Positions 1 through 19,879 of a DNA stretch of 64,000 nt are shown here, piece by piece (position 1 is the first letter of the stretch; the number at the start of each line of letters is the position of its first letter). The notes beneath the pieces were generated by a model, which was given only the letters and a program-made list of their open reading frames with translations, was not told the origin of the DNA and ran no database searches. Source of the stretch: Acidimicrobiales bacterium (GTDB lineage: Bacteria; Actinomycetota; Acidimicrobiia; Acidimicrobiales; RAAP-2); assembly GCA_036268485.1 (NCBI GenBank), contig DATAUC010000062.1, forward strand, positions 31,763 through 95,762, read 5' to 3'. The position numbers and the translations under genes are program-made.

Positions 1-186
1 GGTCACTTTGAAGCCGTGGCCATGCATCACGCTCAAGAACGAGCCGAGGAAGAAAAGCTCCAGCGGCTTGCGGTTGGATTTCAGGCCGCGAGGATTGCGG
101 CGCATTCCGTCCTCGAGGATGCCCATCATGTTGGATTTGGCCATGATGTGTTGGACCATCTCGACGTCGCTTCGTGGGATGCTCAT
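1..186 (-). CDS. hypothetical protein, N-terminal part only (gene runs off the left edge)
   Basis: My reverse-strand translation from the ATG at 186-184 gives MSIPRSDVEMVQHIMAKSNMMGILEDGMRRNPRGLKSNRKPLELFFLGSFLSVMHGHGFKVT... The start overlaps the TGA of the upstream gene (ATGA at 183-186). It is not in the ORF track because it is open-ended. Confidence 0.4.
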   Translation of the reverse strand, partial: MSIPRSDVEMVQHIMAKSNMMGILEDGMRRNPRGLKSNRKPLELFFLGSFLSVMHGHGFKVT

Positions 187-1172: not shown

Positions 1173-1243
1173 TCGGTTTTCCTTGGTCTGGCCCGCTCTT
1201 CGCCGGCCGCATCGAACCGTGCCGGGGCGGCCGGTCGGCGCAG

Positions 1244-2113: not shown

Positions 2114-2238
2114 ATAGTCCGAAGCAGCCGGTCATGCGCAAATGGGTCCCTCCACGGGGCGGGGCCAACCACCGCGGCGGCCCGATTGTGAGCACCAAGT
2201 GCCACTTCTCACCAGTTCGGAGCGCGGCGGATCCGTAA

Positions 2239-2682
2239 ATGGAGAGGTATTTACTCAAGAACCTTGGGCCAGGCGCCGCCGCGCAGACGGTAGGCAGGGT
2301 CGACGAGATCGCCGACCTTGCAACGAAAGGAGAAGGAATGGCTATCGCGCCAGACCTCATGACGCACCCACGAGACGCAGAAGGTGTGCGCTCTCGCATA
2401 GGGCTCTCTCGGGCCCTGACCAAATTGGGCATGTTGATCCGCCAATACGCCATGGTCATGGGCGCAGAAGATGTCGGCCCAAGAGACGCCCACCGTGCCC
2501 TCAAGGCCGTCTGGAATGCCGCCCTTGAGGCTGAATCGTGGATGGGTCGTCTACCCCGCGAAGGTGATGCAGCAGGCACCGCAGTCCTGGTCCAGGCGGG
2601 CGAACTGGCCATCGAGCTCATGTGGCTCTTGGTCGGCGTGCTCGATGCCGCTGGCGGCCCCGACGGGGCACTGGCCGCCTAA
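2239..2682 (+). CDS. hypothetical protein
   Basis: The ORF encodes 147 aa. An alternative start is the ATG at 2338, preceded by AGGAG at 2328-2332 with 5-nt spacing. The overlapping antisense ORF 2016..2621 is S/R/P-rich and looks non-coding. Confidence 0.45.
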   Translation: MERYLLKNLGPGAAAQTVGRVDEIADLATKGEGMAIAPDLMTHPRDAEGVRSRIGLSRALTKLGMLIRQYAMVMGAEDVGPRDAHRALKAVWNAALEAESWMGRLPREGDAAGTAVLVQAGELAIELMWLLVGVLDAAGGPDGALAA

Positions 2683-2689
2683 CCCCCAC

Positions 2690-2723
2690 CCGATGCGCCA
2701 CCCAGATGAGGGTGGCGCATCGG
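2690..2723. terminator. bidirectional stem-loop between convergent genes
   Basis: A perfect 14-bp inverted repeat, ccgatgcgccaccc (2690-2703) and gggtggcgcatcgg (2710-2723), with a 6-nt loop. It sits between the stop at 2682 (+) and the stop at 2759 (-). Confidence 0.6.
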
Positions 2724-2758
2724 TCGTTGAACGGGTGAGCGCTGCCCGGTGTGAACCT

Positions 2759-4246
2759 CTAGGCAGCTTGGCGACTCAAGTTGCGCAATGCGCCCTGGGC
2801 TTGCTCGAGGCACAGTGTGAGCGTGGCGTGGAGCGATTCGAGTCCGGTCACCACCTTGCTGGCGCCGGTGCGCACGCTCATGGCGGTTTTCATCAGCTCT
2901 TGCATCACCAGGAGGGACCGCTTGGCCTCGGCCAGCTTGGTGTCGACCGCCCCGAGGTCGCCTGTCCGGCCATCGGTCAGCTGGCGCTGGGCCTGGACCG
3001 AGAGGAGTAGGAGGGCGCTTCGGAACAGGGCTGGTTCATCCGAGGCCGGGTCATAGGCCATGACGATCCGATTAGGCGCCAGGACGGCCAGCATCTCACC
3101 ACCAGGCACCAGGTCGCGCCGCGCCACCACGCCCAATGAGGCCTGGGCCTGGCGGTTGCGCTCGGCCTGGTCCAGGTAGTCGGCCCAGTTGCGCGCCCCG
3201 CCGGTGGTGCACTCGATGACCACCCGGGCGCAGCGGTCGCCGGGCTCGGCCAGTGAGACCTCGAAGATCCCGTCACCTTTCTTGGAACCTTTGAGTGCGC
3301 CAACCGAGTTGGCGGTGGCGGTGTAGCTGGCACCCATTCCCGCCGCCACGACCTCGGCCGCGGCGCCGATCGCCGCTTCGAAGGGCAGGCCCTTGCCGGG
3401 GGAGTGGGCCTCGATGACGGCGACCGCCGCGGCCGTCTGGGCCGCCCCGATGGTGGTGCCGACCATCTCTTGAACGCGCTCGAGACGTCCGGCGATCTCG
3501 TTGTGCGAGATGCGCTGCTGCTCGAAGAGGCGGCGCTCGAGGGCCCGAAGCGGGCTGGCCTCATTGGAGACGTCCAACGTCTTGGCGACCTCGCTGAGCG
3601 TCGTGGTCAGGGTGCTCTGCCAAGCCATCTGAGCATCGGCCATGGCTTTGGACACGATGCCCTTGATTGATTCGATGACGGGCGCCCTCTCGCCTCCGAG
3701 CAAGCGCTCGAGCTCGCGTTCGACCGCCTCTACGCCACCCTTGACCGATCGTGCCATCTCGACGCTGACCGTCTTGCTGGCGCTGTCGATGATCTTGCCG
3801 GTCTCTTCAGTGGCTGCTTTCGTTGCGGCGACCGTCAGCTCGACTGTGGCGGACGCGGCACGTTGGGCATCGGTGATCATGGCCTGGCCGGCCGTCTCTG
3901 CCCTCTCAGCCAACTGTGCCACCGTCCCTGAGAGTGCGGTGACGCTGCTCGAATCGGCCGTGGACGCCAGTACCCGGGCCCCGACGGCAACCGCAGTCCT
4001 GACGAAAGGCGCGAGATCCGCGGAGGCAGTGACTTCGGGCCCGGCCAGTTCCCCTCGGCGCCCGCTTGTCCACCGAGAGGCCTCGAGGGCGACCTCTGAG
4101 TCCTCGATGAGCAGTTCCTCGATCCAGAGACCCTTCTCCTCGAGGAGGCGAGCGCCTCTCCGGTGACTGGATCCAGGTTGCGGAGCCGACCTGCGTGGTT
4201 CCCTTGCCTGAGAGCCCATTTCGCTGCCTCGTTCGGCCTGTCCCAT
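2759..4246 (-). CDS. coiled-coil protein with a globular C-terminal domain (hypothetical)
   Basis: This lies in ORF 2759..4498. The plausible starts are ATG 4246 (AGGAGG upstream) or ATG 4219. The long A/E/T/V-rich helical region is followed by KKGDGIFEVSLAEPGDRCARVVIECTTGGARNWADYLDQAERNRQ, which is loosely reminiscent of a restriction-endonuclease-like core. Confidence 0.5.
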   Translation of the reverse strand: MGQAERGSEMGSQAREPRRSAPQPGSSHRRGARLLEEKGLWIEELLIEDSEVALEASRWTSGRRGELAGPEVTASADLAPFVRTAVAVGARVLASTADSSSVTALSGTVAQLAERAETAGQAMITDAQRAASATVELTVAATKAATEETGKIIDSASKTVSVEMARSVKGGVEAVERELERLLGGERAPVIESIKGIVSKAMADAQMAWQSTLTTTLSEVAKTLDVSNEASPLRALERRLFEQQRISHNEIAGRLERVQEMVGTTIGAAQTAAAVAVIEAHSPGKGLPFEAAIGAAAEVVAAGMGASYTATANSVGALKGSKKGDGIFEVSLAEPGDRCARVVIECTTGGARNWADYLDQAERNRQAQASLGVVARRDLVPGGEMLAVLAPNRIVMAYDPASDEPALFRSALLLLSVQAQRQLTDGRTGDLGAVDTKLAEAKRSLLVMQELMKTAMSVRTGASKVVTGLESLHATLTLCLEQAQGALRNLSRQAA

Positions 4247-4448
4247 TGTGCACCTACCTCCTGCCCCAATCGGGGCGTTGTGGACGCTGCGAAGGCGAAA
4301 GTGGTGCTCCCTTCCATCCCGGCACTCCCTTTGAAACAGGTCACAATGATCGTGGCTGCATTGGCCTGGCAGCACCCTCAACCAGCTGCGGGGCAGCAGC
4401 CTGTGTCGGGGCGACTGCGCCCAGGTTGATACCGCAAACCATTGGATC

Positions 4449-5072
4449 ATGCACATACCAGTTCCACCACCATTGACCAACCCGCTTCTTGGGACCAACC
4501 TGCTGCCTTTTGGCGGCGAGGCCTATCTCGTGCCGCAGTTCCTGACCCCCCATGAGGCCGATCGCACCCTGGGGCAACTGCTCGTCGAGCTGCCATGGGA
4601 GCAGAAGCACGTGAAGCTGTACGGCAAGGTGCACCCGGTGCCTCGTCTTACCGCTTGGAGTGGCGACGTGGCGTACAAATACTCGGGCGTCATTCATGAG
4701 CCCGCACCGTGGTCACCAACGCTCGAAGCCGTCCGAGAGCGCGTGAGCCATGTCGTCCCGCGGCCAAATGGCGTGTTGGGCAATCTCTACCGCGGCGGTG
4801 TGGACACGGTCGGCTATCACGCCGACAACGAGAAGGTGTTCGGCCCGTACCCGATCATCGCGTCGGTCAGCCTCGGGGCGGAACGCCGCTTCACCTTGCA
4901 GCTCAACGACAACCACAGCGACAAGGTTGAGATGGTGCTGCCACACGGCAGCCTCTTGGTCATGGCCGGCGAGACCCAGACGAGGTGGAAGCACACCGTG
5001 CCGCCCGCTCGAAAGTCAGAGGGACACGTTGGTACCCGGGTGAACCTGACATTCCGGAAGCTGGTTGACTGA
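4449..5072 (+). CDS. alkB: AlkB-family Fe(II)/2-oxoglutarate-dependent dioxygenase (nucleic-acid demethylase)
   Basis: Motifs seen: HADNE (HxD), WKHTV (distal His) and RVNLTFR (RxNxTxR). The length is 207 aa. Confidence 0.85.
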   Translation: MHIPVPPPLTNPLLGTNLLPFGGEAYLVPQFLTPHEADRTLGQLLVELPWEQKHVKLYGKVHPVPRLTAWSGDVAYKYSGVIHEPAPWSPTLEAVRERVSHVVPRPNGVLGNLYRGGVDTVGYHADNEKVFGPYPIIASVSLGAERRFTLQLNDNHSDKVEMVLPHGSLLVMAGETQTRWKHTVPPARKSEGHVGTRVNLTFRKLVD

Positions 5073-5098
5073 AGGCGACGGGAGGCAGTGCAGGTGGG

Positions 5099-5791
5099 TT
5101 AGGCGATCATCTCCATCCTCAGACCGCGGCCATCGAGGTCTCCCCCGAGTTGGCGGTGAGTGCGGGTCGCCCAGCGCCGCGCGCTCCAGGCGGCCACGAA
5201 TGCATCGAGCACATCGTCTGGCTGAGTGCCCGGGAACCGCTGGCCGGCGTAATGGTCAACGTCATCGAACACGGTCCGCAGCGCGGCGAGTCGCTCGGCT
5301 CGACCGTTGGGCCTCCTCTTGTGATGGCTCATGGGCCTTCCGACCAAGATGGTGAAGCTCACTTCTGGGTGCACTTCGACGAAGGATTGCTGACGCTCGG
5401 GTGTGAGGAGCTGGTCTACCTCCCTGATCTTGGGGAGGATGGCGAAGGCCTGCTTCGAGATTGCCTTGCCTGAAATCGACCGGGACTTCTCACAGGCCAC
5501 TTCGTAGGATTGGGCGTCGAGCACGCCACGGACGGGTGCTGGGAACACCGAGCTTCTGCGGTCTCCGATCAGCTTTCGAGCTTCGAAGTCACAAGGCCGA
5601 GAATCGGTGGGCGAGAGGCCAATGGGAATGTCGATGGCGGCGGCTGAGAGTCGGCCGGAGTCGAGATCGGCGATCAAGGGCGCCAGGTCCGTGAGTACCG
5701 TCACTTCGGACGTGCCGTTGCCGTCGGCCGGCGTCGTCACCAAAACCCAACCAACACGACACCCGTCGAGACTACCCACCAACTTCGTCAT
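5099..5791 (-). CDS. DUF429 domain protein
   Basis: This lies in ORF 5099..5881, with the start taken at MTKLVGSLDGCRVGWVLV (ATG 5791, AAGGA upstream). It has the typical DUF429 N-terminus (GxDGCxxGW), IDIPIGL, and a C-terminal DDVLDAFVAAWSA motif. It starts 10 nt downstream of the NTase stop. Confidence 0.7.
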   Translation of the reverse strand: MTKLVGSLDGCRVGWVLVTTPADGNGTSEVTVLTDLAPLIADLDSGRLSAAAIDIPIGLSPTDSRPCDFEARKLIGDRRSSVFPAPVRGVLDAQSYEVACEKSRSISGKAISKQAFAILPKIREVDQLLTPERQQSFVEVHPEVSFTILVGRPMSHHKRRPNGRAERLAALRTVFDDVDHYAGQRFPGTQPDDVLDAFVAAWSARRWATRTHRQLGGDLDGRGLRMEMIA

Positions 5792-5801
5792 CAGGAGTCC
5801 T

Positions 5802-6668
5802 TTATCGAGCGGGGAACTGCCCTCCGAAGAGCAGGTTGAGGTAACTAAAGGCTTCGGCGGGCTTGTCGGCCCGGTACGCATCGAGTGCCTTCCGGGCCCT
5901 AGTTGCGGCGGTGTTCACCTTGGACAAAGCATCCTCAGCCTTGGCCGTTGTTGAGCAGGCGTAGAAGCGAGTAGTGACACCCTTGGGATCATTCATTGGA
6001 CCGAGACTGATCTTGGCAAGGTGCTCGAACAAGAAGCAGACGTCACAGACGGGAACAAACGACTTATCTCCAGAGAGGTATTGGGCGGCACGCATTTCGA
6101 GGTAGAAAGACGACATCGGCACGTTGTTGTAGTACTTCCACGCCTTGGCGAGGCGAGCGAGCTTCTTGGCCCCACCGGCGATGGCCGCTTCTTTGTTGAC
6201 GTCGTTGACGTAGGAAAGGTGCTCAAGCGGTGCTGATTCCATCCACTCGACTCCACCTACGCCTGGGATGTCGTACAGGGCAGGATCTTTGTCGTTCTTC
6301 CGGTAGCCCGGGATGACCTCCCAGGTTTCCGCGCCAGCGCTGAATTCCACGACCACCGCCGGTCGGCTGATCCGCACCGTGGTGTGCGGGAAACTCTTCG
6401 AGAGCGCCCCTTTTACGCGATCGAGTGCGGTGCCAGAGGTACCCGGCTTGTCCTTGAGGCTGACCAACAAATCGACGTCGCAATGACCCCGCACACCAGT
6501 GCCATGGCTGAAGGACCCCGCCTCCCTAAAGAGCTGAACGTCCAACGCATTCCGCAACGAAGTCTCGACACTTGATCGGTGAGAGGCCGCTGCGCTTCTC
6601 TGCGTCTCGAGGGGGACGAGTCGCGTGAGAAAGGTGTCGAACCCTTGGGCCACGGTAAGTGCCATCAC
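5802..6668 (-). CDS. SMODS/CD-NTase-like nucleotidyltransferase
   Basis: It carries a pol-beta NTase signature, GSFSHGTGVRGHCDVDLLV (GS...GT...DxD), a later acidic strand TWEVIPGY, and a KLARLAKAWKYYN helix. The start (GTG 6668 or ATG 6665) overlaps the stop of the upstream 2TM gene. Confidence 0.65.
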   Translation of the reverse strand: MMALTVAQGFDTFLTRLVPLETQRSAAASHRSSVETSLRNALDVQLFREAGSFSHGTGVRGHCDVDLLVSLKDKPGTSGTALDRVKGALSKSFPHTTVRISRPAVVVEFSAGAETWEVIPGYRKNDKDPALYDIPGVGGVEWMESAPLEHLSYVNDVNKEAAIAGGAKKLARLAKAWKYYNNVPMSSFYLEMRAAQYLSGDKSFVPVCDVCFLFEHLAKISLGPMNDPKGVTTRFYACSTTAKAEDALSKVNTAATRARKALDAYRADKPAEAFSYLNLLFGGQFPAR

Positions 6669-7051
6669 TGCTCCTTTGGTTCGTCCACTGCGTACGACTG
6701 TCCGCCGCTGTCGATGTTCGCCTGAGCTCGCCTGCGCGACCGTCGATTGGGAGGCTCTGCCGTCTTGTTCTGCTCATCGCGCCGCGAAGTGAGTTCCGCC
6801 AACATCTGGCGGGCATCATCCAGAGGCATGTACGGAAGATCAATCTCGCGTGCTTGGCGGGCCGCGGTCTGTATCTCGAGGTACGCATTGGCAGCGGACG
6901 ATGCCTGGTTCATGTGGTGAGAGGCGTTGATCGTGGTGAGGACAGCTCCGAATCCAGCTGCCGCAATGGCGAGTATGCCGGCGGTGATGCGCCCGGCTGT
7001 AGCTGCCAGCGCCGTGGCGCCGGATGCCGCGGCCAGGAGGCTGGCGGGCAA
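6665..7051 (-). CDS. SLATT-like two-transmembrane-helix protein (putative membrane effector)
   Basis: Two hydrophobic helices, PASLLAAASGATALAA and ITAGILAIAAAGFGAVLTTI, are followed by a charged tail (EPPNRRSRRRAQ). The track start is a TTG. The frame stays open upstream to the stop at 7184-7186 and encodes ...QWRGINLLLG, so the true start is uncertain (a CTG at 7060 is possible). Confidence 0.55.
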   Translation of the reverse strand: MPASLLAAASGATALAATAGRITAGILAIAAAGFGAVLTTINASHHMNQASSAANAYLEIQTAARQAREIDLPYMPLDDARQMLAELTSRRDEQNKTAEPPNRRSRRRAQANIDSGGQSYAVDEPKEQ

Positions 7052-7373
7052 CCCGAGCAGGAGATTGATCCCTCGCCACTGTTTCGTCTGCTCGAACTGT
7101 GCCTGAGAACTGTAGGTGGCGCTTTCCTCTACTCGCTGAAGTCGGCCTCTATGGCCGATCGTCTCTCTGCGTCCTCTGGTCCCTCAGCCATCACAAAGAC
7201 AGGCTAAGGGAGGGTTGTGACAACCCGAGGTGCACTTCACTCTCAAGGTCCGAAAGCTCCTTGTCTTGGATAGCCACTCCATTGTTAAGTCCATTTCTCC
7301 TGGTCAGCTGGCCAAAGCTTAGCTGTGTACGAGGACAGTCTCAAGTTCGGTTAGGGGATGTTGACGAAAAGTA

Positions 7374-7401
7374 TTGACAATCACACGTACACATCTATAC
7401 T
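7374..7401 (+). promoter_or_regulatory. sigma-70-like promoter, probably giving a leaderless transcript of the NYN/RM operon
   Basis: TTGACA (7374-7379), a 16-nt spacer, then TATACT (7396-7401). The ATG of the first gene at 7409 lies 7 nt after the -10 element, and no SD sequence is visible. The local region is AT-rich. Confidence 0.5.
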
Positions 7402-7408
7402 GGTCAAC

Positions 7409-7900
7409 ATGCGATCACACAAGCAGGAGAGCGGGCCCCGGCACTTGGTCCTCATCGACATCGAAAACATGGCCGGGACGCCCAGTCCAACGGCTCTGGA
7501 CGTGGATCAGGTGAAGGCTGCGCTTCGGACGGCCATCCCAGACCTAGAACAGGCACAGTGCGTCGTGGCTTGTAGTCATCGGGCGGCTGCCGTCGTCTCG
7601 TTCGGGTTCCCCGCGGCGCTGCGACGCTGGCGATCTGGGATCGATGGTGCGGACCGGGCCCTTATGGGCGAACTCAGTGACCTCCGCGTGATGAAGCGGT
7701 TCGGCAAAGTGACAATCTGCTCTGGCGACGGGATTTTCACCGAGAGCATTGCTGCAATCGCAGAACTTGGAGTCGAAACAACCGTGGTATCGCTTCAGGG
7801 TCATCTCTCAAAGCGCTTGAAGTGCGCGGCCCGCAGCGTTGTTTTGGTCGCACTCGGCGATACGCCGCCGCCCGTCAGCGCACTCAAGGGGGCCGCATGA
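7409..7900 (+). CDS. NYN/LabA-like (PIN-like) domain protein, putative RNase
   Basis: Motifs seen: LVLIDIENM, DGADRAL, ICSGDGIF, LGVETTVVS and a SKRL...VVLV tail, matching the NYN domain layout. The stop overlaps the next ATG (ATGA at 7897-7900). Confidence 0.65.
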   Translation: MRSHKQESGPRHLVLIDIENMAGTPSPTALDVDQVKAALRTAIPDLEQAQCVVACSHRAAAVVSFGFPAALRRWRSGIDGADRALMGELSDLRVMKRFGKVTICSGDGIFTESIAAIAELGVETTVVSLQGHLSKRLKCAARSVVLVALGDTPPPVSALKGAA

Positions 7901-9411
7901 GCGACAAAGCGAATGTTCAACTGGTTTCAATGGCGGACATCGCCCGCATGGCTGGACAGTCCCGGGCAACTGTGGGGAACTGGAAGGCTCGTGAGGACGA
8001 CTTCCCTGAAGAGCACAGCAGGGGCAAGAGAGGTCCGCTCTACGATCGTGAGCTCATCGCCCGGTGGTTGGCGGCAAAAGGTCGCATCACGGCGACTGCA
8101 CCAATTGGATCTCAGTTGTTCGGGCAAGTCGACGAGGAGTTCGCTCGCGGGTTCGACCCAGACGTCGTCTTGGAACTGTGGTTGGTTGTGTTGGCCTTGC
8201 GTTGCCTACTTCCCGAAGCCTCTTGGTCTCGTATCGCCGGCGCCGAGCCGGCGATGCTTGAAGATCAAGTTCGATCGGCCGCCCATCAATGGCTCGGAGA
8301 TGCAGCCGACCTTTTGCCCCGAGTGGCTCTGCCGGTGGCGGGGCTTGAAGGTGTTGTGAGGGGTGTGTCCGCACTCGATCAGGGCGGAATCTTGGATACC
8401 GCGGATTTTGTACTCGACAGACTGCTCCAGGGACATGGCCACATGGGGCACGGAAAGTTCTCCACCCCAAGGAGCCTTCGCTCTCTGATGACGGAACTTT
8501 GTGGCCCTGGTGCGTCATTCTACGACCCGGCAGCCGGGGCTGGCCGGTTACTGATCGAAGTGGCTGAGGCGAGCAATACTTTTCTGCCCCCAGCTCTTTT
8601 CGGTCAGGAGCCGAACGTCCACATCAGGAGCATTTGCGAGTTGAACCTGAAGATTCATGGACTTGAAGCGACGATCAAGTTGGACAACGTCCTGTTTTAT
8701 GACCTCTTCCCGGATGCCCAGTTCGACCGAGTCGTATGCGATCCACCATGGGGTCAACGGCTTCCCGAGACCAGCGCACTTGTCGACGATCCACGCTGGA
8801 TCTGGGGTGAGCCCACGGGCGATGCAAGCACGGCGTGGATTCAGCACTGCCTGTACCACTTAGGGCCGGAAGGTAAGGCTGTCATTGCCCTGCCGCCGAA
8901 GATTCTCTTTGAGAAGGGTCGGACGGCCCGAACGCTCCAAGGCATCATCAAGGCGGGACTTCTCGAGGCCGTGGTCAGCCTTCCACCCGGATTACTCCCA
9001 GGCGCCTCTATCGGGTGCGCTGTGCTGGTGTTCGCGAAGGGCCGGCCCACGGTGGACGGGAAGCCATCTCCTGCGTTGATGATCAACATCGACGATGCCC
9101 AGTTGGAGGGAGTCGGTAGGGAGAGGTCGCTCGCGCCCGGCCTTATCGCCTCGATCGGTGAAATTTATCGTAACTGGACTTCCGGCACGTCTCCCAACTC
9201 AGAGATTGCTTCGACAGCCCAGTACGATGATCTTGCTGAGAATGCCTTTGACCTGAGTCCTCGACGCTACGTGGTGCCAAGCACCGTCCTTGTTGACACG
9301 ACGGCGCTCCTTCACCAGCAACAGGAACTGATCCGGCGACTCGGCGACTCGCTGGACACATGCAAGAAGACTGATGCCCAACTGATCCGCCTGTTGCAGG
9401 AGCAGTCGTGA
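7897..9411 (+). CDS. N6-adenine DNA methyltransferase (HsdM-like, gamma class) with an N-terminal excisionase/MerR-type HTH
   Basis: The N-terminus VSMADIARMAGQSRATVGNWKAREDDFP looks like an HTH. Motif I is FYDPAAGAGRLL and motif IV is VCDPPWGQ. The likely start is MSDKANV at 7897. Confidence 0.8.
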   Translation: MSDKANVQLVSMADIARMAGQSRATVGNWKAREDDFPEEHSRGKRGPLYDRELIARWLAAKGRITATAPIGSQLFGQVDEEFARGFDPDVVLELWLVVLALRCLLPEASWSRIAGAEPAMLEDQVRSAAHQWLGDAADLLPRVALPVAGLEGVVRGVSALDQGGILDTADFVLDRLLQGHGHMGHGKFSTPRSLRSLMTELCGPGASFYDPAAGAGRLLIEVAEASNTFLPPALFGQEPNVHIRSICELNLKIHGLEATIKLDNVLFYDLFPDAQFDRVVCDPPWGQRLPETSALVDDPRWIWGEPTGDASTAWIQHCLYHLGPEGKAVIALPPKILFEKGRTARTLQGIIKAGLLEAVVSLPPGLLPGASIGCAVLVFAKGRPTVDGKPSPALMINIDDAQLEGVGRERSLAPGLIASIGEIYRNWTSGTSPNSEIASTAQYDDLAENAFDLSPRRYVVPSTVLVDTTALLHQQQELIRRLGDSLDTCKKTDAQLIRLLQEQS

Positions 9412-10109
9412 TGTCGGCCTCGCAGAAGAAGCTCGGAGCCATCGAAGGCGTGGAACTAGTGCGAGGCATGCCTACTACCCGCACAGCGAAGACTGGAGAC
9501 GTTCCCGTCCTCTCGGTCGCGGCCCTGCGCAACGGAGATGCTCCAAGGAGGTTTGTGGGGCGCGCTGAGATGATTACGGTGGGCGCGGCACTGGTCAATG
9601 ACGTGCTGCTCGCCGTAGAAGGTGGAACGGTTGGCGAGTGCTTCGTTGTTCACGAAGATCTCGCCGAGTTCGTTCCTTCACAGCAGGCGGCCACTCTTCG
9701 AGTGCTGTCAACTGAGGAAGTCGAGCCATGGTACCTAGGCGCCTGGCTGAGCTCCGCAGAGGGTCAACAAAGACTTGGTGTGATCGCGCGAGGATCAACC
9801 ATCCAGCGCATCGCATTTGGTGATCTCGAAGGCCTCGATGTCCGCATACCGCAGCTCACCGAGCAGCGACGCATAGGCGGACGATACCGGGCATTTAACG
9901 AATCGATACGGGCGCATCGAGCTGTTGCAGCTGAGTTGGAAGAACTGCAGAGGGTCGAGTTCGCACTGGCATTCTCCGGTGAAGAGATGCAGCAGGAAAG
10001 TGGACCAACGCTGAATCAAGCGGCGCTTAGGCGATTGAAGGCAAGAGCCACTTCGTTCTCTGATGAAAGACTTCCTGATGGGCCACCCAAAGAAGAGGGG
10101 AAACGATGA
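9408..10109 (+). CDS. half-size type I specificity subunit (single target recognition domain)
   Basis: At 233 aa it has one TRD plus the conserved helix region (STIQRIAFGDLEGLDVRIPQLTEQRRIG...ELEELQR). There are 4-nt overlaps at both ends. Confidence 0.7.
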   Translation: MMSASQKKLGAIEGVELVRGMPTTRTAKTGDVPVLSVAALRNGDAPRRFVGRAEMITVGAALVNDVLLAVEGGTVGECFVVHEDLAEFVPSQQAATLRVLSTEEVEPWYLGAWLSSAEGQQRLGVIARGSTIQRIAFGDLEGLDVRIPQLTEQRRIGGRYRAFNESIRAHRAVAAELEELQRVEFALAFSGEEMQQESGPTLNQAALRRLKARATSFSDERLPDGPPKEEGKR

Positions 10110-12052
10110 ATAGCCATTCCGAGAAGGTCGCCTTTATATGGTCGGTCAAAGAAGTCCTCCGAGACCACTACAAGAGGCACCAGTACGGGGAAGTGATCTT
10201 GCCCTTCTGCGTCCTGCGGCGACTCGACTGCGTGCTTGAACCCACCAAGGAGGATGTACTGGTGAAGGCCTCAAGTATCTCAGGAGAACTCGACTCTCAT
10301 GCCGATCTGCTGGCTCATACTGCCAAGCAGCCCTTCTACAACACCTCGAAGTTCAGTTTCGCCAACTTGTTGGGCGACCAGCACAACATCACGGCAAACG
10401 TGCACGACTTCATCAACGGTTTCTCGCCTAACACACGCGACGCTCTGGAGAAATTCGGTCTACCTCGCCACGTCGACAAGATGGGCGAGGCTGGGATCCT
10501 CTACATGGTGGTCCAGCGCTTTGCTGCCATCGACCTGCACCCCGAGGTCGTCTCCAACCTCGACATGGGCTACATCTACGAGGATCTTGTTCGAGTCACA
10601 GCCGATCTCTCCAATGAGGAGGCAGGGGAGCACTTCACACCCCGAGAGGTCATTCAACTGATGGTGAACATCTTGTTCTCCGACGAGGACAAGCTGCTAA
10701 CCCAGGGCAAGATCGCTACCGTCTACGACCCCGCCTGCGGGACCGGGGGCATGCTGTCGGTGGCCGAAGAGCACCTGCGAGAAATCAATCCGTCGGCCAA
10801 GCTCCACCTATTCGGACAGGAGATCCAGCCTGAGTCCTACGCCGTGTGTCGTTCCGACATGCTGCTCAAGGGACAGGACGCGTCCCGCATTGAGTTCGGT
10901 GATTCATTCACCCAGGACGAATTCGCCGGCGAGCGGTTTGACTACATGTTGGCCAACCCGCCGTTCGGCAAGGACTGGAAGACTATCGAAAAGGACCTCA
11001 AGCGCGAGCATTCGCAGCTCGGTATGTCAGGACGCTTCGGCGCAGGTCTGCCGTCCACCTCGGATGGCCAGATCCTCTTTCTTCAGCAGATGATTTCGAA
11101 GATGCGACCTATCGAGGACGGGGGCAGTCGCATCGGGGTCGTCTTCAACGGCTCGCCACTATTCTCCGGCGACGCCGGCTCCGGCATGAGCGAGATTCGA
11201 CGCTGGATCATCGAGAACGACATGCTCGAGGCGATCATTGGTTTGCCCGATCAGCTCTTCTACAACACCGGCATCTACAGCTACGTCTGGGTGGTTACCA
11301 ACCGCAAGCGTCCGGAGCGTCGAGGCCACGTGCAGTTGATCGACGCCCGCGAACTCTGCGCCAAAATGCGCAAGAGCCTAGGCAACAAGCGCAACGAGCT
11401 TCTGCCAGCGCATATCACTGAGATCGTAAGGCTGTACGAGGGCTGCATCGATGGCGAGAGTTCAAGGGTGCTGCCCAATGAAGCCTTCGGCTACCGCAAG
11501 GTGGTCGTGGAACGCCCGCTCCGTGTTCGCTACGACGTCTCCGAGGCGACTGTTGCCGCGGTCGCTGAGTTAAAGCCGGTCCAGGCACTCGATGAATCAG
11601 AGGCAGTCACGTTGGCAGACGGCCTGCAGTCCCTCGCTGGCAACTCTTACGCAACATTGAGTGAGTTGGAGCTGGCTCTGAAGCCGCTGTTTGCCAAACT
11701 GGCCAAGGCGTCGGCTCCACTTCGAAAGGCTGTCCTGTCTGAGTGCATGACACGAGATCCGGAGGCGGATCCACTACTGACGGTGAAGGGCGCGTTCGTG
11801 CCCGATCCGGACCTACGGGATGCCGAGAGTGTGCCACTAGGGGAGGACGTCAGCGAGTTCATTGCCCGTGAAGTGACGCCCTTTGCTCCGGACGCTTGGG
11901 TGGATGAGAGCAAGACCAAGCTCGGGTACGAGTTCCCTTTCACCCGACATTTCTATGCGTACGTGCCGCCTCGACCACTAGACGAAATCGATGCGGACAT
12001 CAAAGCAAGTCAGCAAAGGATCTTACGGTTGCTCGCCGAGGTGGCTGAGTGA
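10106..12052 (+). CDS. hsdM: type I restriction-modification methyltransferase subunit M
   Basis: It has an HsdM N-terminal region. Motif I is VYDPACGTGGMLS and motif IV is NPPFGKDWK. The length is 648 aa. Confidence 0.9.
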   Translation: MNSHSEKVAFIWSVKEVLRDHYKRHQYGEVILPFCVLRRLDCVLEPTKEDVLVKASSISGELDSHADLLAHTAKQPFYNTSKFSFANLLGDQHNITANVHDFINGFSPNTRDALEKFGLPRHVDKMGEAGILYMVVQRFAAIDLHPEVVSNLDMGYIYEDLVRVTADLSNEEAGEHFTPREVIQLMVNILFSDEDKLLTQGKIATVYDPACGTGGMLSVAEEHLREINPSAKLHLFGQEIQPESYAVCRSDMLLKGQDASRIEFGDSFTQDEFAGERFDYMLANPPFGKDWKTIEKDLKREHSQLGMSGRFGAGLPSTSDGQILFLQQMISKMRPIEDGGSRIGVVFNGSPLFSGDAGSGMSEIRRWIIENDMLEAIIGLPDQLFYNTGIYSYVWVVTNRKRPERRGHVQLIDARELCAKMRKSLGNKRNELLPAHITEIVRLYEGCIDGESSRVLPNEAFGYRKVVVERPLRVRYDVSEATVAAVAELKPVQALDESEAVTLADGLQSLAGNSYATLSELELALKPLFAKLAKASAPLRKAVLSECMTRDPEADPLLTVKGAFVPDPDLRDAESVPLGEDVSEFIAREVTPFAPDAWVDESKTKLGYEFPFTRHFYAYVPPRPLDEIDADIKASQQRILRLLAEVAE

Positions 12053-13323
12053 ATACCTCGGGCTTGGCGCATCAAGCTGCACCGGCGCAAGCGGCAATGC
12101 TGAGCATCCCAAGAGGATGGCGGACCTATCGACTCAAGCACGTTGCGAAGCTGAATCGCGAGGTGTTGCCGGAGATGACTGATCCAGACAGCACCTTTCG
12201 CTACATCGACATTGGGTCAGTCGACAGCTTGGGACGGATCTCGGATGTCGAAGAACTGACCTTCGGGGAGGCACCAAGCCGAGCTCGACGAGTTGTTCAT
12301 CGAGGAGATCTCATCGTGTCCACCGTCCGCACCTACCTCCGAGCCATTGCACAACTAGAGGACTTGGATGGTGCAGTAGTCGCCTCGACGGGATTTGCCA
12401 CGGTGACGGCTGGAGCTCTTGTAGAACAGCGGTTCCTCTATTGGTGGTTGCGGAGTACGCCATTCGTCGAAGAGGTCGTTGCCCGCTCAACGGGGGTCAG
12501 CTACCCCGCCGTCAACGCGTCCGACATTGGCGACATCGTCGTGCCCGTTCCTCCAATGGATGAGCAACGTCGGATCTCCAAGTACCTGGATTCAGCCACT
12601 GCGCGAATCGATGAACTTCTGGCGGAGCAGGACCAACAGATAGTTCTGCTTGAAGAGAGGTTGCTCGCAGAACGTCGAGCTCTACTTCTGGGTCCCGAGG
12701 GTTTGGGGTTCCCGGGGTGGGACTATGGACGACTCAAGCGGTTCATCTCGATTGCTCGGGGTCGATTCACTCATCGTCCTCGAAATGACCCTGCCCTATA
12801 TGACGGACCGTATCCATTCATACAGACGGGAGACATCGTTTCAGCTGTGAATGGAGAGATCATCACTTGGTCGCAGTCGCTCAATGAAATCGGCCTTGCT
12901 GCCAGTCGTTTAGCTAAGAAGGGCACCTTGGTAATGGCCATCGCCGCGAACATCGGAGACATCGCACGGCTGGGCTTTGATGCTTGCTTTCCCGACAGCA
13001 TCGTTGCGCTATCGGGCTCCGCTGCCGTGACGGACGACTACGTCCTTCAGCTCGTCCGTGCGATCCGCACCGAACTTATCGGAGGTGCCACCTTGAACAC
13101 TCAATTGAACACCAATGTCGATCGGATCGGGGACATCCAAGTTCCCATTCCTCCCATCTTGGAGCAGAAACGCTTGGTCGAGGTGCTAGATCAATCTGCG
13201 CGAGACGTACAGGAACTCAAACTCGAGAACAACCAGCAGAACTCACTTCTGCGCGAGCACCGACAGGCTCTCATCACCGCAGGTGTCACTGGTGGCCTTG
13301 AGGCGTTACGGGAGGTGGCGTGA
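12049..13323 (+). CDS. hsdS: type I restriction-modification specificity subunit S (two TRDs)
   Basis: At 424 aa it has two TRD-plus-conserved-helix units (PPMDEQRRISKYLD... and PPILEQKRLVEVLD...). Confidence 0.85.
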   Translation: MNTSGLAHQAAPAQAAMLSIPRGWRTYRLKHVAKLNREVLPEMTDPDSTFRYIDIGSVDSLGRISDVEELTFGEAPSRARRVVHRGDLIVSTVRTYLRAIAQLEDLDGAVVASTGFATVTAGALVEQRFLYWWLRSTPFVEEVVARSTGVSYPAVNASDIGDIVVPVPPMDEQRRISKYLDSATARIDELLAEQDQQIVLLEERLLAERRALLLGPEGLGFPGWDYGRLKRFISIARGRFTHRPRNDPALYDGPYPFIQTGDIVSAVNGEIITWSQSLNEIGLAASRLAKKGTLVMAIAANIGDIARLGFDACFPDSIVALSGSAAVTDDYVLQLVRAIRTELIGGATLNTQLNTNVDRIGDIQVPIPPILEQKRLVEVLDQSARDVQELKLENNQQNSLLREHRQALITAGVTGGLEALREVA

Positions 13324-16300
13324 TGCCATCGCATGTGACGGAGCACCAGTTCGAGTCAGACATCGTCGAATCGCTCACAACGAGCGGTGGGTACTCGTTG
13401 GGCGCGGACTCCCACTTCGACAAGAAGTCTGGTGTGGATACAGCTGAACTCTTCGCATTCCTCGGAAACACCCAGGGTGAGAAGTGGAACTCATTCGTCG
13501 ACACCCGCTACGGCGGAGACGCTGGCAAGGCGCAGGAGAAGTTCTTGTCCCGTCTTGTCGCTGAGCTCGACCAGCACGGGACAATCGACGTTTTGCGAAC
13601 CGGCATCAAGGACCAGGGCGTGAACTTCGCCTTGGTGTACTTCAAGCCAGCATCGGGCATGAACGCGACGCTCGCCGAACTCTACGCGAAGAACCGACTT
13701 ACCGTCACCCGGCAACTCCATTACTCCCTGGCCAATGCCAATTCGCTCGATCTCGCCCTGTTCGTGAACGGGATACCAGTCGCGACTGCGGAGCTGAAGA
13801 GCACATTCAACGGGCAGACCGTGGACCATGCCATCGAGCAGTACGAGAGCGATCGCGACCCTAAGGAGTTGCTTCTTGGCCGGCGCGCGCTCGTCCATTT
13901 CGCCGTCGATCCCCACCTCGCCTACATGACGACGAAGCTGGCATACAAGGCAACGGAATTCCTACCCTTCAACCTCGGTAGCAACCCCGGCCAGATGTCC
14001 TGTGGCGAGGGCAACCCACCCAATCCCAAGGGGTATTCCACGTCCTACCTATGGGAGCGGGTCTGGTCCTACGATGCCTGGCTCGACATCTTGGGACGCT
14101 TCGTCGAGTCCTTTCAGGACGGCAAGGGCAAGCCCCGCCGGGTGGTCTTCCCGCGGTTCCACCAGTGGGACGCCGTCACCAAGCTGGCTGCGGATGCGCT
14201 GGCCAATGGCCCTGGGAACTCCTACTTGATCCAACATTCTGCGGGGTCGGGCAAGTCCAACTCCATCGGATGGTTGGCACACCGGCTCTCACTGCTCCAC
14301 GACTCGGCTGACCACAAGGTGTTCAACAAGGTGATCGTCGTCACCGATCGCCGGGTCCTCGACGAGCAGCTCCGGGCCACGGTGAGGCAGTTCGAGGACG
14401 TGAAGGGCACGATGGTTTCGGTGGAGGGCAAGAGCGGCTCGAAGTCGTCCGAGTTAGCCGATGCCCTCACCGGCATGGCCCAGATCATCACAGTGACACT
14501 CGAAACATTTCCCTATGTGATCACCAAGATCGCGGAGGCCGAGCTCGCCAAGTTCACCTATGCGGTCATCGTGGACGAGGCGCACTCGTCGCAGACCGGG
14601 GATGCGGCGAACGCGCTGAAGCAGGCCCTCGGCGCCGGCGGCGGAGGCGGATCAGAGGGTGAGGGCGAAGGCGAAGGGGAGATGGACGCTGAGGCGGCGC
14701 TCGCGGCCATTGTGGCCGCACGCGGACGCCAGCCGAACCTGAGCTTCTTCGCCTTTACCGCAACGCCCAAGGCTCGCACGGTCGAGCTCTTTGGAGTCCC
14801 CAACGCGGAGGGCATCAAGATCCCCTTCCACCTCTACACGATGCGTCAAGCCATCGAAGAGAAGTTCATCCGCGACGTCCTGGAGAACTACGCCACCTAC
14901 GACACCTACTTCAAGCTTGCCGCAACCTCAGAGCAAGCGGCCCATGAGGAGGTGGACGTCCGCAAGGCCGCTTCGGCCATCCGGCGCTATGTGGCGAGGA
15001 ACCCCGCGCTCATCAAGCAAAAGGCGGCGATCATCGTCGAACACTTTCGCGAGCACACGGCGAAGGAGATCGGCGGGCGAGCCAAGGCCATGGTGGTCAC
15101 CGACTCGCGTCCCGCCGCGGTCAAGTACAAAGCGGCCATTGACGCTCACATTGCTGAAAACCACATCACAGATGTGAAGGCGTTAGTGGCGTTCTCGGGC
15201 ACGGTCAACGACGATGTTATGGGAGAAGTCACCGAGAGCTCGCTCAACGGTTTCGCCGAATCACAGACGGCGGCCCGCTTCAAGGGTACGGATCCTTTCA
15301 AGCCGGGGGACTACCAGATCCTCATCGTGGCCGAGAAATTCCAGACGGGCTTCGACGAGCCGTACCTGCACACCATGTTCGTCGACAAGCCGCTGAAGGG
15401 TCTCAACGCGGTACAGACTCTGTCGCGCCTCAACCGCATCGCACCGGGGAAGACCTCTACATTCGTGCTCGATTTTCGCAATAAAGCCGAAGACATCCAG
15501 TCGGCGTTCCAGCGCTACTACGAGGCCGTCATCGCGGAGTCCACTAACCCGAACGTCCTCTACGACCTCCAGGGTCGCATGATGGGTGTTGGCATTCTCG
15601 ACGTGGCCGAGATCAATGCTGCGAGCGACGCCTTCTTTGGCATCGACCCATCGAAGCGGAGCTTGAAAGCCCTCTACGCAAATGTCGACCCGGCCGTGGA
15701 CCGCTTCAAGGACCTCGATGACGATGACCAGGCGGAGTTTCGGGACGCTTCTGACCGATTCATCCGGGCTTACTCGTTCCTGTCGCAGGTCATGCCGTGG
15801 ACCGACCCCGAGCTCGAGCGGCTCTATGTCTACGCCAAGGCCCTCGCCGCATGCCTGCCGGCGCAATTGTCCGGAGGGCTGGACCTCGGTACTGACGTGG
15901 TTCTGACACACCTCCGGTTGGTCGATCGGGGCGCCGAGGAGGTCGACCTTCAGCCGGGCGAGGTCAGTCCGGAGAAGCCGTTCCCTGGCGAGGGCCACGC
16001 GGGCGGTCCCGGCGATCCCCTCCTCGACAACCTGAGCACAGTCATCGAGCAGATCAACGAGATCTTCGGTGCCGACCTCGACGAGCGGGACCGCCTTGAG
16101 GTCGAGAAGATCAAGATGACTCTCCTAGACCGTCAGGATCTCAAGACCTATGCGACGGCCAACAGCGAGGAGAACTACGCCCTCGAGTTCGGCCCTGTAT
16201 TCAGGGGTGCGGTCCTGGACCAAGAGGAGCACAACCGGCGCCTCTACGAGCTGCTGCAATCCAAGCCCGATTTGGCAGCCATGGTCGAGAAGCAGCTGAT

Positions 16301-16352
16301 GCGCGAGACCTACAACCAGCTACGGGCGGATCCGCCGGCCAATACGCCATGA
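13320..16352 (+). CDS. hsdR: type I restriction endonuclease subunit R
   Basis: SF2 helicase motifs are present: HSAGSGKSNS (I), VDEAHSSQTG (II, DEAH), FTATPK (III) and QTLSRLNR (VI). The length is 1010 aa. Confidence 0.9.
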   Translation: MMPSHVTEHQFESDIVESLTTSGGYSLGADSHFDKKSGVDTAELFAFLGNTQGEKWNSFVDTRYGGDAGKAQEKFLSRLVAELDQHGTIDVLRTGIKDQGVNFALVYFKPASGMNATLAELYAKNRLTVTRQLHYSLANANSLDLALFVNGIPVATAELKSTFNGQTVDHAIEQYESDRDPKELLLGRRALVHFAVDPHLAYMTTKLAYKATEFLPFNLGSNPGQMSCGEGNPPNPKGYSTSYLWERVWSYDAWLDILGRFVESFQDGKGKPRRVVFPRFHQWDAVTKLAADALANGPGNSYLIQHSAGSGKSNSIGWLAHRLSLLHDSADHKVFNKVIVVTDRRVLDEQLRATVRQFEDVKGTMVSVEGKSGSKSSELADALTGMAQIITVTLETFPYVITKIAEAELAKFTYAVIVDEAHSSQTGDAANALKQALGAGGGGGSEGEGEGEGEMDAEAALAAIVAARGRQPNLSFFAFTATPKARTVELFGVPNAEGIKIPFHLYTMRQAIEEKFIRDVLENYATYDTYFKLAATSEQAAHEEVDVRKAASAIRRYVARNPALIKQKAAIIVEHFREHTAKEIGGRAKAMVVTDSRPAAVKYKAAIDAHIAENHITDVKALVAFSGTVNDDVMGEVTESSLNGFAESQTAARFKGTDPFKPGDYQILIVAEKFQTGFDEPYLHTMFVDKPLKGLNAVQTLSRLNRIAPGKTSTFVLDFRNKAEDIQSAFQRYYEAVIAESTNPNVLYDLQGRMMGVGILDVAEINAASDAFFGIDPSKRSLKALYANVDPAVDRFKDLDDDDQAEFRDASDRFIRAYSFLSQVMPWTDPELERLYVYAKALAACLPAQLSGGLDLGTDVVLTHLRLVDRGAEEVDLQPGEVSPEKPFPGEGHAGGPGDPLLDNLSTVIEQINEIFGADLDERDRLEVEKIKMTLLDRQDLKTYATANSEENYALEFGPVFRGAVLDQEEHNRRLYELLQSKPDLAAMVEKQLMRETYNQLRADPPANTP

Positions 16353-17911
16353 GGTGGCGGTCAGCTCAGTCCGATCTTGAGCCCAAGACCACCATCTACG
16401 AACACATCATCGCGCACTTGCCCCCGGCTGGACCCGGCCTCACCGAGGGAGGTGACACGCTGCCCGACACCCAGCCGAAGAGCGACGAGCTGGCATGGAT
16501 CAGCGGTGGTCTCGACGGAGCGTTCGGGTTCCATGCCGGACCAGCGGCTGGTGATGAGCAGCTCGTGCTCGATGTGTTCGGGCTGCTGGCCAAGGCGACC
16601 CGACCAGGAGCGAAGGCCACTGACGTTGGCCGCCTGTACGAGAAGGTCCGGACATCTGAAGTACTGGCGTCGTTGGACGCAGTGCTGCGAATGGTGCGAT
16701 CGAACGGGTTGCCAGCGGCAGGTCTCCGACACGTTGGTGTTCGGCTTGCCAAGGAGGGTCGACACCGAGAGCCGGTGAAGTTCGGCATGGCGCTCCTGGG
16801 TCTCTTGAAGGGGGACCCCGAACGGGACCTGTTGCTGATGCTCGGACGTCACGAGGAGTTCACCCTGTTTGCGGTGGTGGCCATCAAGAACTCTGACCCT
16901 GATTCGGAGCCTTTCTTGCTGAAGCTGGCAAAGAGCGTCGAAGGGTGGGGCAGGATCCAGTGCGTCCGGCGGTTGAGCGACGCCGAGCGCTCCGACACGA
17001 AGGACTGGATTCTGAGGGAGGGGTTTCGAAACGGCGTCATGAACGAGTACCTCGCCTTCATCGCAGCGACGACGGGGGGCCTGGTCACTGCTTTGGGAGG
17101 TCCCGGGGGCGATCCGATCCTCCTCGATGCCGCCTGCGACATCATCTCGGCCCTCATCGCCGGCGGCCCAGCCGAGGACATCGATGACTATGAGCAGGCA
17201 CCCGAGGCGATCCGCCTCTTGGTCAGCCGGCTCAACGGTGAAGCTGTGTCCCTCCACAATTTCCTCGCGGTGGACGACATCGAACGGTTTTTGGCCGACG
17301 ACGAGGGATGGGACGGTCGGCTGGAAAAGGGCTGGACGGCAGACTTGCGGCAAGAGCTGATCGACCGCACGCGTGCCATCAAGTCCTGGGAGAGCTGGAG
17401 GGCTCTCGCCGTAGAGGGCCTGGCCTCGGAGGACCGCTACGGCTACTACGTGGCCGACCGAGTTGCCAGGTCCCTGGGGGTCGACACCTTTGAGAACCGG
17501 TGGCAGCGACTGCAGGCTGATCCGCTCAGAGAGAGTTGGCAGTGGGTGTTCGAGCTCTGCGACGAGCGCCGAATCGATGAGGTCATCGCACTGGCAGAGA
17601 TCGCCCTGCCTCTGGAGAAAATTGCCAGCGGGCCGGCTGAATCCTTGGGTATCGGGCCGGAGTGGGGACCCCACCGGGCACTCGATTCCGTCCTCCAGGG
17701 CCTAAGGCGATTCCCGGGCCGAGGGTGGAAACTTGTCGAGACCGGTCTGCGAAGCCCGGTGGTGAGAAACCGGAACATGGCCATCAGAACGCTCTCGGCA
17801 TGGGGACCCGGATCGTTCTCGCCCGAGATGCGTGCCGCCGTGACCGCTGCGGCCGAGATCGAACCTCGAGACGACGTACGGGGTCGGCTGGAGGATCTAT
17901 GCAATTCCTGA
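16349..17911 (+). CDS. hypothetical all-alpha protein with HEAT-like repeats, translationally coupled to hsdR
   Basis: The ATG at 16349 overlaps the hsdR TGA (ATGA). The 520-aa product has HEAT-like segments (WGRIQCVRRLSD and SPVVRNRNMAIRTLSAWG). The antisense ORF 16361..17674 is judged a shadow ORF. Confidence 0.55.
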   Translation: MRWRSAQSDLEPKTTIYEHIIAHLPPAGPGLTEGGDTLPDTQPKSDELAWISGGLDGAFGFHAGPAAGDEQLVLDVFGLLAKATRPGAKATDVGRLYEKVRTSEVLASLDAVLRMVRSNGLPAAGLRHVGVRLAKEGRHREPVKFGMALLGLLKGDPERDLLLMLGRHEEFTLFAVVAIKNSDPDSEPFLLKLAKSVEGWGRIQCVRRLSDAERSDTKDWILREGFRNGVMNEYLAFIAATTGGLVTALGGPGGDPILLDAACDIISALIAGGPAEDIDDYEQAPEAIRLLVSRLNGEAVSLHNFLAVDDIERFLADDEGWDGRLEKGWTADLRQELIDRTRAIKSWESWRALAVEGLASEDRYGYYVADRVARSLGVDTFENRWQRLQADPLRESWQWVFELCDERRIDEVIALAEIALPLEKIASGPAESLGIGPEWGPHRALDSVLQGLRRFPGRGWKLVETGLRSPVVRNRNMAIRTLSAWGPGSFSPEMRAAVTAAAEIEPRDDVRGRLEDLCNS

Positions 17912-17959
17912 GCTCTGACGGACGGTGAGTCCCATGGAGCACAGGCGAGCGACGCGCAA

Positions 17960-18434: not shown

Positions 18435-18516
18435 ATGTAGTGGGCACATCTCCACCGGCCACTTTGACCAGGGCCCCAGTCTACGCCCGGCTCAGCGAGC
18501 CTGGCACGTGAGCGAC

Positions 18517-19041: not shown

Positions 19042-19065
19042 AGGGGTCGAGGGTACCCTGACACC

Positions 19066-19476: not shown

Positions 19477-19593
19477 GTGCGGGTGGGGGAGTGCCAGCGC
19501 TCCCGTTAGAATCTGACCAGATCAGTCAACAATCGTCCTGACCTGCCCCCATGGCCCATGGCGGGCCTTGACATCACCCCATGAGGAGGCCCT

Positions 19594-19869: not shown

Positions 19870-19879
19870 GCCGCCGCCC

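Follow-up and report, generated by a model that had tools for sequence, protein, structure and literature searches.

A leaderless NYN nuclease gene translationally coupled to a methylase-like protein and a half-size specificity subunit: a possible decoy cassette upstream of type I restriction systems in Actinomycetota

Results

Organization of the operon

The DNA analysed here is a 64,000-nt stretch of contig DATAUC010000062.1 from an Acidimicrobiales bacterium (assembly GCA_036268485.1; hereafter the window), and the subject of this work is a cassette formed by the first three genes of an operon on its forward strand. The first gene (7409..7900) encodes a NYN-domain nuclease of 163 aa, which is the predicted effector. 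The second gene, M1 (7897..9411), encodes a protein of 504 aa in which an AlpA/MerR-like winged helix-turn-helix (HTH; residues ~9-60) precedes a helical domain like that of HsdM and an N6_Mtase domain. The third gene, S1, starts at 9408 (GTG, 233 aa) or 9411 (ATG, 232 aa) and ends at 10109; its product has one target recognition domain (TRD) plus a helical region. The operon runs past position 10109 and consists of seven genes in total, each of which overlaps the next by 4 nt. The three genes that follow S1 encode HsdM (10106..12052, +; 648 aa, HsdM_N plus N6_Mtase, with an NPPF motif), HsdS (12049..13323, +; 424 aa, full size with two TRDs) and HsdR (13320..16352, +; 1010 aa, with HSDR_N, SWI2/SNF2 ATPase and T1R_D3-like domains). 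Thus, a complete type I restriction-modification (R-M) system is present in the same operon as NYN-M1-S1. Neither this system nor the seventh gene was part of an earlier note on this DNA, which had been made from the sequence alone and ended at 10109.

The proteins encoded by the first three genes

The 163-aa protein is a NYN protein by profile, fold and residues. Firstly, it matches the Pfam NYN family (PF01936) with 27.9 bits, above the gathering cut-off of 24.2, over residues 13-142. Secondly, its AlphaFold model (pLDDT, the predicted local distance difference test, of 86) has a PIN-like alpha/beta fold, and the best Foldseek matches in the PDB are the NYN domain of MARF1 (5yaa, 6fdl) and the LabA-like protein 2qip, with E ~1e-5 and template modelling (TM) scores of 0.6-0.68. 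Thirdly, residues D17, N20, D82 and D107, located in LIDIEN, DGAD and SGDG, are invariant across 25 NYN homologues, and these four align with positions LVDVQN, D93 and SGDGDF of 2qip. The earlier note had recognized a NYN domain with its acidic positions in place, and had proposed that the conservation of the catalytic aspartates be examined in an alignment; the domain is borne out by the profile score and the fold matches, and the aspartates by their invariance. The nuclease is probably an RNase.

The stop codon of the NYN gene overlaps the start codon of M1 in an ATGA sequence at 7897-7900, as had been described before. M1 matches N6_Mtase (PF02384) with E = 2.4e-46, and its model (pLDDT 90) aligns over ~490 columns with PacII M, HsdM 3lkd and 3khk, EcoR124I and EcoKI as the best Foldseek matches, so that, as far as the model goes, M1 has a full HsdM-like fold. 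Among solved structures, the nearest ones include the HsdM subunits in complexes of EcoKI with Ocr and of EcoR124I with Ocr or ArdA. The protein scores 63 bits against the equivalog TIGR00497, which is below the cut-off of 242.75. No match to HsdM_N (PF12161) was found in M1; instead, a winged HTH occupies its N-terminus. In the model, residues 1-60 are folded into a strand, two helices (12-19 and 23-32), a hairpin wing (41-50) and a further helix (51-60). Single-sequence Pfam matches of this region are weak, but of the N-termini of 22 family members, 13 match HTH_17, 9 match MerR_1 and 9 match Phage_AlpA. The best PDB profile match of the M1 N-terminus is the AlpA-family regulator 8c3t (E = 0.0016), and the Joint Genome Institute (JGI) annotation labels some M1 homologues AlpA. 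The HTH-like N-terminus that the earlier note had seen on the methyltransferase is therefore visible as a winged HTH in the model and agrees with profile matches that are weak but consistent. In S1, a single Methylase_S domain was found at residues 25-178, in agreement with the single-TRD specificity subunit noted previously.

NYN, M1 and S1 behave as one evolutionary unit

A large protein collection contained 266 homologues of the NYN protein, of which the loci of ~100 were fetched. All related loci with a named source belong to Actinomycetota (Acidimicrobiia, Thermoleophilia, Mycobacteriales and others). Where the downstream sequence is long enough, the NYN gene is in most loci followed by an M1 gene with its N-terminal HTH (below, HTH-M1 loci) and then by an S1 gene of ~200 aa; the overlap at the gene junctions of the cassette is always 1 or 4 nt, and some loci encode M1 and S1 as a single fusion protein of 650-800 aa. 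The triplets that the earlier note had suggested looking for in other genomes are thus present, and a search seeded with M1 arrived at the same arrangement, with a NYN gene upstream in five of five loci. Pairwise identities among NYN, M1 and S1 correlate strongly (Spearman 0.91), and their correlation with those of the downstream HsdM and HsdS is 0.02-0.15. Judged from these identities, NYN-M1-S1 is one conserved evolutionary unit of three genes, to which the type I module is attached interchangeably.

A complete type I system follows directly in about 28 of the 45 informative loci, and the type I neighbours belong to differing families with differing gene orders, either M-S-R or R-M-S with an EcoEI-type HsdR. 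On plasmids of Gordonia, Dietzia and Mycolicibacterium, the cassette likewise runs into type I systems.

A minority of the NYN genes have another partner. In loci L002, L004, L005, L007 and L023-L028 (our numbering of the loci fetched), the NYN gene is translationally coupled to a gene of 495-500 aa encoding a fusion of an ADP-ribosylglycohydrolase and a dual-specificity phosphatase (ARH-DSP), accompanied by a divergent RpiR gene (HTH_6 plus SIS). In the NYN tree, the genes linked to ARH-DSP form one well-supported clade that is nested among those linked to HTH-M1, and this topology indicates that ARH-DSP is a derived partner swap. We considered whether ARH-DSP speaks against the link between NYN and the methylase, and rejected this because a single derived clade within the HTH-M1 loci is involved. 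NYN-ARH-DSP is an uncharacterised two-gene module found in defence contexts or in those of integrative and conjugative elements (ICEs), and is derived from the methylase-linked NYN clade.

Conservation of the catalytic motif in M1 and of sequence in S1

In N6-adenine methylases, the amino group of the target is contacted by the first residue of motif IV, which is N or D almost without exception. The M1 protein of the window has both motif I (YDPAAGAG) and motif IV (DPPW) intact. Among 39 M1 homologues, a canonical (D/N)PP(W/F) motif IV is found in seven; the motif reads VPPW in 25 and IPPW in three, with APPW, HPPW, QPPV and DPPL occurring once each. The set of M1 proteins derived from the fetched loci gave a similar result, with a canonical motif IV in 3 of 24, and in the copies encoded on plasmids motif IV is DPPL or EPPF and motif I is damaged. 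As a control, we inspected the downstream HsdM proteins, which keep NPPF or NPPY in 19 of 19 cases. Because motif IV is mostly degenerate in the M1 family, methylation would not be the function that selection has kept in M1, whereas the acidic residues of its NYN partner are maintained; we take it that methylation is not the conserved function of the family. As the catalytic motifs of the M1 protein in this genome are intact and it belongs to the canonical minority, it may still be active as a methylase and also methylate DNA.

A comparison of near-identical cassettes (L056, L057 and L060; L008 and L052) was informative on the specificity subunits. Within these groups NYN, M1, S1 and HsdM are 80-92% identical, S1 itself being 80-89% identical, whereas HsdS is only 14-29% identical. 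On this evidence the real HsdS turns over its TRDs, whereas S1 merely tracks its neighbours, and is conserved rather than diversifying.

Promoter and operator

A sigma-70-type promoter is located upstream of the NYN gene (7374..7401, +). It has the sequence TTGACA at 7374-7379, a spacer of 16 nt and TATACT at 7396-7401, agrees with the consensus at 11 of 12 positions, and is the sole such site in the region 6900-7600, as compared to 0.1 expected from shuffles. The ATG at 7409 starts 7 nt after the -10 box, with no Shine-Dalgarno (SD) sequence before it. From these features the earlier note had concluded that the mRNA is probably leaderless, and the spacing recurs in related promoters. Thus, the aligned upstream regions of HTH-M1 loci show the pattern TTGAC(A/G/T), 16-18 nt, TAnnnT, 6-7 nt, start codon. 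Of 67 distinct HTH-M1 promoters, 37 show this pattern when it is applied strictly and with an in-frame start, as compared to none of seven ARH-DSP loci, which have an SD-like sequence and a leader in place of the leaderless architecture; the distance between the -10 box and the start codon is 6 or 7 nt in 38 of the 39 pattern matches. The geometry of the promoter, together with its conservation, supports the view that the mRNA of the NYN operon is leaderless.

The promoter spacer contains, on the reverse strand, an exact copy of the 13-nt sequence TGTGTACGTGTGA (7381..7393), which is the candidate binding site (operator) of the winged HTH of M1. This sequence occurs at fixed positions in HTH-M1 promoters: copies are typically found ~100 nt upstream, directly next to the -35 box and within the spacer (20 bp apart), and the start codon is spanned by an inverted core. 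When up to two mismatches were allowed, 62 matches were obtained in 38 of 64 HTH-M1 upstream regions, none in 22 other upstream regions, and three in the ~700 kb of remaining locus sequence. In the window, ATCACAC (7414..7420, +), just past the start codon, is a possible operator half-site, which we assign with low confidence; relatives have the inverted operator core across the start codon. Distant subclades whose HTH sequences differ have repeats of another kind at these positions. In a distant subclade (L092, L093, L097 and L102), TGTGTACGTGTGA is replaced upstream of NYN by an inverted repeat resembling ATGAGTGAGGTAACTCAT, and the HTH and S1 sequences of this subclade also differ. Since the subclade with another repeat has another HTH and another S1, operator, HTH and S1 co-vary. 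Most likely, the wing-helix head of M1 reads the operator, although the TRD of S1 might contribute to this. The suggestion made earlier that the HTH autoregulates the operon is plausible in view of a 13-nt operator whose repeats over the promoter are confined to HTH-M1 loci. No match to TGTGTACGTGTGA was found in the gaps between S1 and HsdM, and for this reason we rejected the idea that M1 regulates a separate type I promoter.

Distribution and genomic surroundings

The cassette family is rare and accessory: none of 24 genomes from the same genus carries the NYN gene, and a search for M1 in 400 genomes of the class gave a match only in the genome of the window. The cassettes are surrounded by ICEs, plasmids and defence islands, with TrwC relaxases, integrases, ArdC-N, AbiE, DarTG and GmrSD. 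Two loci illustrate this: a GmrSD-like type IV enzyme comes after the cassette and type I block in one (L100:18862-20436), and DarT plus a Macro-domain protein come after it in the other (L108:18016-19506), which indicates that the cassette sits in islands with multiple defence systems. A phage origin was considered and rejected, as no relatives were found in viral contigs or in a phage collection. Membership of a named defence system was rejected as well, because PADLOC and NCBIfam gave only generic matches (MTase_I and Specificity_I), weak matches to MADS far below the cut-off and a partial NYN match; the cassette is thus not a listed defence system. Our full-text literature search gave no paper that describes a NYN nuclease together with a type I M/S pair. 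A NYN candidate from within another defence system, HEC-09, protected against none of the phages on which it had been tested.

In the window, the seventh gene of the operon (16349..17911, +; 520 aa) overlaps the stop codon of hsdR (ATGA). It had no match in Pfam, NCBIfam or PADLOC, and no homologue of it was found after HsdR of the other cassettes examined, and on these grounds it is treated as a local addition and not as part of the cassette. Directly upstream of the NYN promoter, and divergent from it, is a pair of genes (5802-7051, -) of a cyclic-oligonucleotide-based antiphage signalling system (CBASS), encoding a CD-NTase/SMODS cyclase (PADLOC E = 7.6e-111) and a 2TM/SLATT effector (E = 3.3e-51), behind which lies a DUF429 gene (5099-5881). 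On the other side, the 3' end of a tmRNA (ssrA) gene (18090-18434, -) is located ~180 nt from the end of the seven-gene operon. Because the 3' end of ssrA adjoins the end of the operon, the block to the left of it (CBASS, AlkB-like, DUF429 and the R-M cassette) looks like an island at a classic ssrA integration site; a repeat of the ssrA 3' end was looked for in 1-17950, with a negative result. An open reading frame of 142 aa (18262-18690) that overlaps the tmRNA gene is probably spurious. It is followed at 18697-20848 by genes for a JAB-domain protein, a 91-aa open reading frame and a pyridoxal phosphate (PLP)-dependent enzyme, which we take to resemble the actinobacterial mec-cysO-cysM cysteine pathway, and which probably mark the core genome to the right of the island.

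Discussion

What, then, could be the role of a nuclease that is translationally coupled to a methylase-like protein and a half-size specificity subunit? The explanation that we rank first, to which we give a little less than an even chance, is that the cassette is a decoy or guard comparable to Ronin or PrrC, in which a latent NYN nuclease is held by a methylase-like sensor and serves as an abortive-infection back-up against phages that block restriction. We rank it first because a constant nuclease with an intact active site, a methylase-like partner that keeps its fold, its DNA-binding subunit and a frozen specificity but commonly loses its catalysis, and the placement in front of whichever type I system on mobile elements match the logic of Ronin. 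The mechanism that we propose is as follows. M1 and S1 would assemble into an M2S2 complex resembling a type I methylase, whose conserved role would not be methylation; instead, the complex would hold the NYN nuclease inactive and would repress its own promoter via the N-terminal winged HTH. When a phage or plasmid disables type I restriction with a DNA mimic or another anti-restriction protein, the same protein would also bind the look-alike M1-S1 complex. This would set the NYN nuclease free to cut RNA of the cell and of the phage, and the infection would be aborted. The logic of a decoy or guard has been shown by experiment for Ronin and for PrrC-EcoprrI. The contact between NYN and M1, the trigger and the substrate in this scheme are all points that we infer. 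Somewhat more tentatively still, we propose that this is a case of natural decoy immunity, in which a type I methylase that has retired from catalysis, with its frozen S subunit, has become bait for the anti-restriction proteins of phages and plasmids, wired to a NYN RNase as executioner and to a winged-HTH autorepressor.

The Ronin system of E. coli ECOR55 provides the closest parallel. It consists of the toxin gene ronA followed by hsdS and hsdM, without hsdR (Silas et al., bioRxiv 10.1101/2023.04.06.535777). Its HsdMS pair suppresses the toxin, the system does not require methylase activity (F287G), the triggers of cell death are anti-restriction proteins (Ocr, ArdA and Aop1), and other R-M or BREX systems are linked to the locus (bioRxiv 10.1101/2023.04.06.535777). 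Like Ronin, the NYN cassette has a small effector gene in first position followed by a type I M/S pair without an HsdR of its own. In both, the HsdM/HsdS pair is tightly linked to the effector, as shown here by the co-evolution of NYN, M1 and S1 independently of the neighbouring HsdR, and in both the upstream region is essential or elaborate. The NYN cassette also adjoins other R-M systems, including composites of types I and IV such as the one in which GmrSD follows the type I block (L100). That methylase catalysis is dispensable was demonstrated for Ronin by experiment; here, the natural loss of motif IV in most members may point the same way, though indirectly. On the other hand, there are clear differences. 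The effector of Ronin is RonA, a membrane peptide of 61 aa, whereas the effector here is a soluble nuclease of 163 aa without sequence relationship to it; M1 carries a winged HTH in addition, and S1 has half the usual size; the genes are arranged as effector-M-S; and the host phylum is Actinomycetota. As there is no RonA, the cassette is not a member of Ronin, and a trigger such as that shown for Ronin is proposed for the NYN cassette by analogy.

Other known systems share some of these features. In PrrC-EcoprrI, a latent RNase encoded in the operon of a type Ic R-M system is thought to be silenced by the methylase/specificity complex and to be freed when a phage peptide blocks restriction. 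The NYN cassette resembles it in that a latent nuclease would be encoded with a type I R-M operon; however, the partner of PrrC, which has an ABC-ATPase domain, is the real R-M enzyme, whereas NYN has a dedicated methylase-like partner and the real R-M system is interchangeable. HTH-fused methyltransferases and C-proteins, such as M.SsoII, M.EcoRII and C.AhdI, are known to autoregulate R-M operons, and a methylase of the M.AhdI type is an M2S2 complex. As in M.SsoII and M.EcoRII, the methylase here has an N-terminal HTH and operators in its own promoter, and as in M.AhdI, the combination of M with a half-size S is expected to give M2S2. Those are, however, active type II modification enzymes that accompany a restriction endonuclease, whereas in the cassette catalysis is mostly lost and the partner is NYN. 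Sporadic and poorly conserved operons of VapC-type PIN plus HsdM plus HsdS, without an obvious restriction enzyme, were noted in a survey of PIN-like nucleases (Matelska et al. 2017, PMC5499597). Unlike those cases, the cassette is a conserved NYN family with an HTH-M1 partner, which was not described there.

Several observations weigh against the decoy explanation. The M1 protein of the window retains DPPW and YDPAAGAG and could be a working methylase, and non-canonical variants of motif IV might retain some activity. About a quarter of the cassettes have no adjoining type I system and are followed by other genes. One derived clade swapped M1-S1 for ARH-DSP, so that NYN would not be tied by necessity to a methylase-like partner. 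In addition, the HTH and the operator could mean that the M1-S1 complex is mainly a regulator, and the effector of Ronin is not a nuclease.

The alternative that we rank next, although we consider it unlikely, is an addiction module of the toxin-antitoxin kind. NYN would be the toxin, and HTH-M1 together with S1 would act as a large antitoxin that binds DNA and represses the operon encoding it; such a module would stabilise an ICE or plasmid together with the accompanying R-M genes, and no phage trigger would be needed. In favour of this, translation of the PIN-like nuclease is coupled to that of a DNA-binding partner and an array of operators covers the promoter, the cassette is located on mobile elements and plasmids, and the PIN-HsdM-HsdS operons noted previously (PMC5499597) also go without a restriction subunit. 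However, an antitoxin with the full HsdM-HsdS architecture is left unexplained by this alternative, as is the frequent position of the cassette directly upstream of unrelated type I families.

Slightly less likely, in our opinion, is that the cassette controls the type I system. HTH-M1 and S1 would autoregulate a shared promoter, in the manner of C-proteins and of HTH-fused methylases such as M.SsoII, and NYN would trim the polycistronic mRNA, so that restriction is delayed or limited when the element enters a new host. The seven overlapping genes of the window behind one operator-bearing promoter, the co-variation of operators and HTH, and the existence of dedicated type I repressors (RptR) would all fit. 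On the other hand, many loci have 100-350 nt between S1 and the type I genes with no operator in the gap, a quarter of the cassettes lack a type I system, and a regulator needs neither an HsdS-like subunit nor an invariant nuclease site.

Finally, it is improbable that the cassette is a true second R-M system, as was implicit in the earlier note, in which M1-S1 methylates a palindromic bipartite site and a recruited NYN enzyme cleaves unmethylated invading nucleic acid: although motifs I and IV of M1 are canonical in the window, methylases made of M and a half-size S such as M.AhdI exist and the NYN active site is conserved, M1 and S1 are probably not the modification enzyme that had been envisaged, because the catalytic N or D of motif IV is gone in most family members and S1 lacks the specificity turnover seen in the adjacent HsdS, and to our knowledge no NYN enzyme acts as a restriction DNase.

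If the decoy explanation is true, the NYN cassette would be a second and unrelated case of decoy immunity in bacteria, with another effector and in another phylum. Decoy immunity, which so far has been shown once, in E. coli, would then be a widespread modular strategy of the mobile elements of Actinomycetota, acting as an escort for any type I system that follows, and restriction systems would commonly carry their own alarm against anti-restriction proteins. The explanation is directly testable, since there are cultured hosts of plasmid-encoded cassettes (Mycolicibacterium alvei with pJCM12272, Gordonia with pSMJS1.1, Dietzia with pDK2035-69, and Rhodococcus) and large collections of actinophages. 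The compact, sequence-defined operator and the leaderless promoter may find a use in actinobacterial genetics, and the M1 family provides a natural series of methylase-like proteins at differing stages of catalytic decay.

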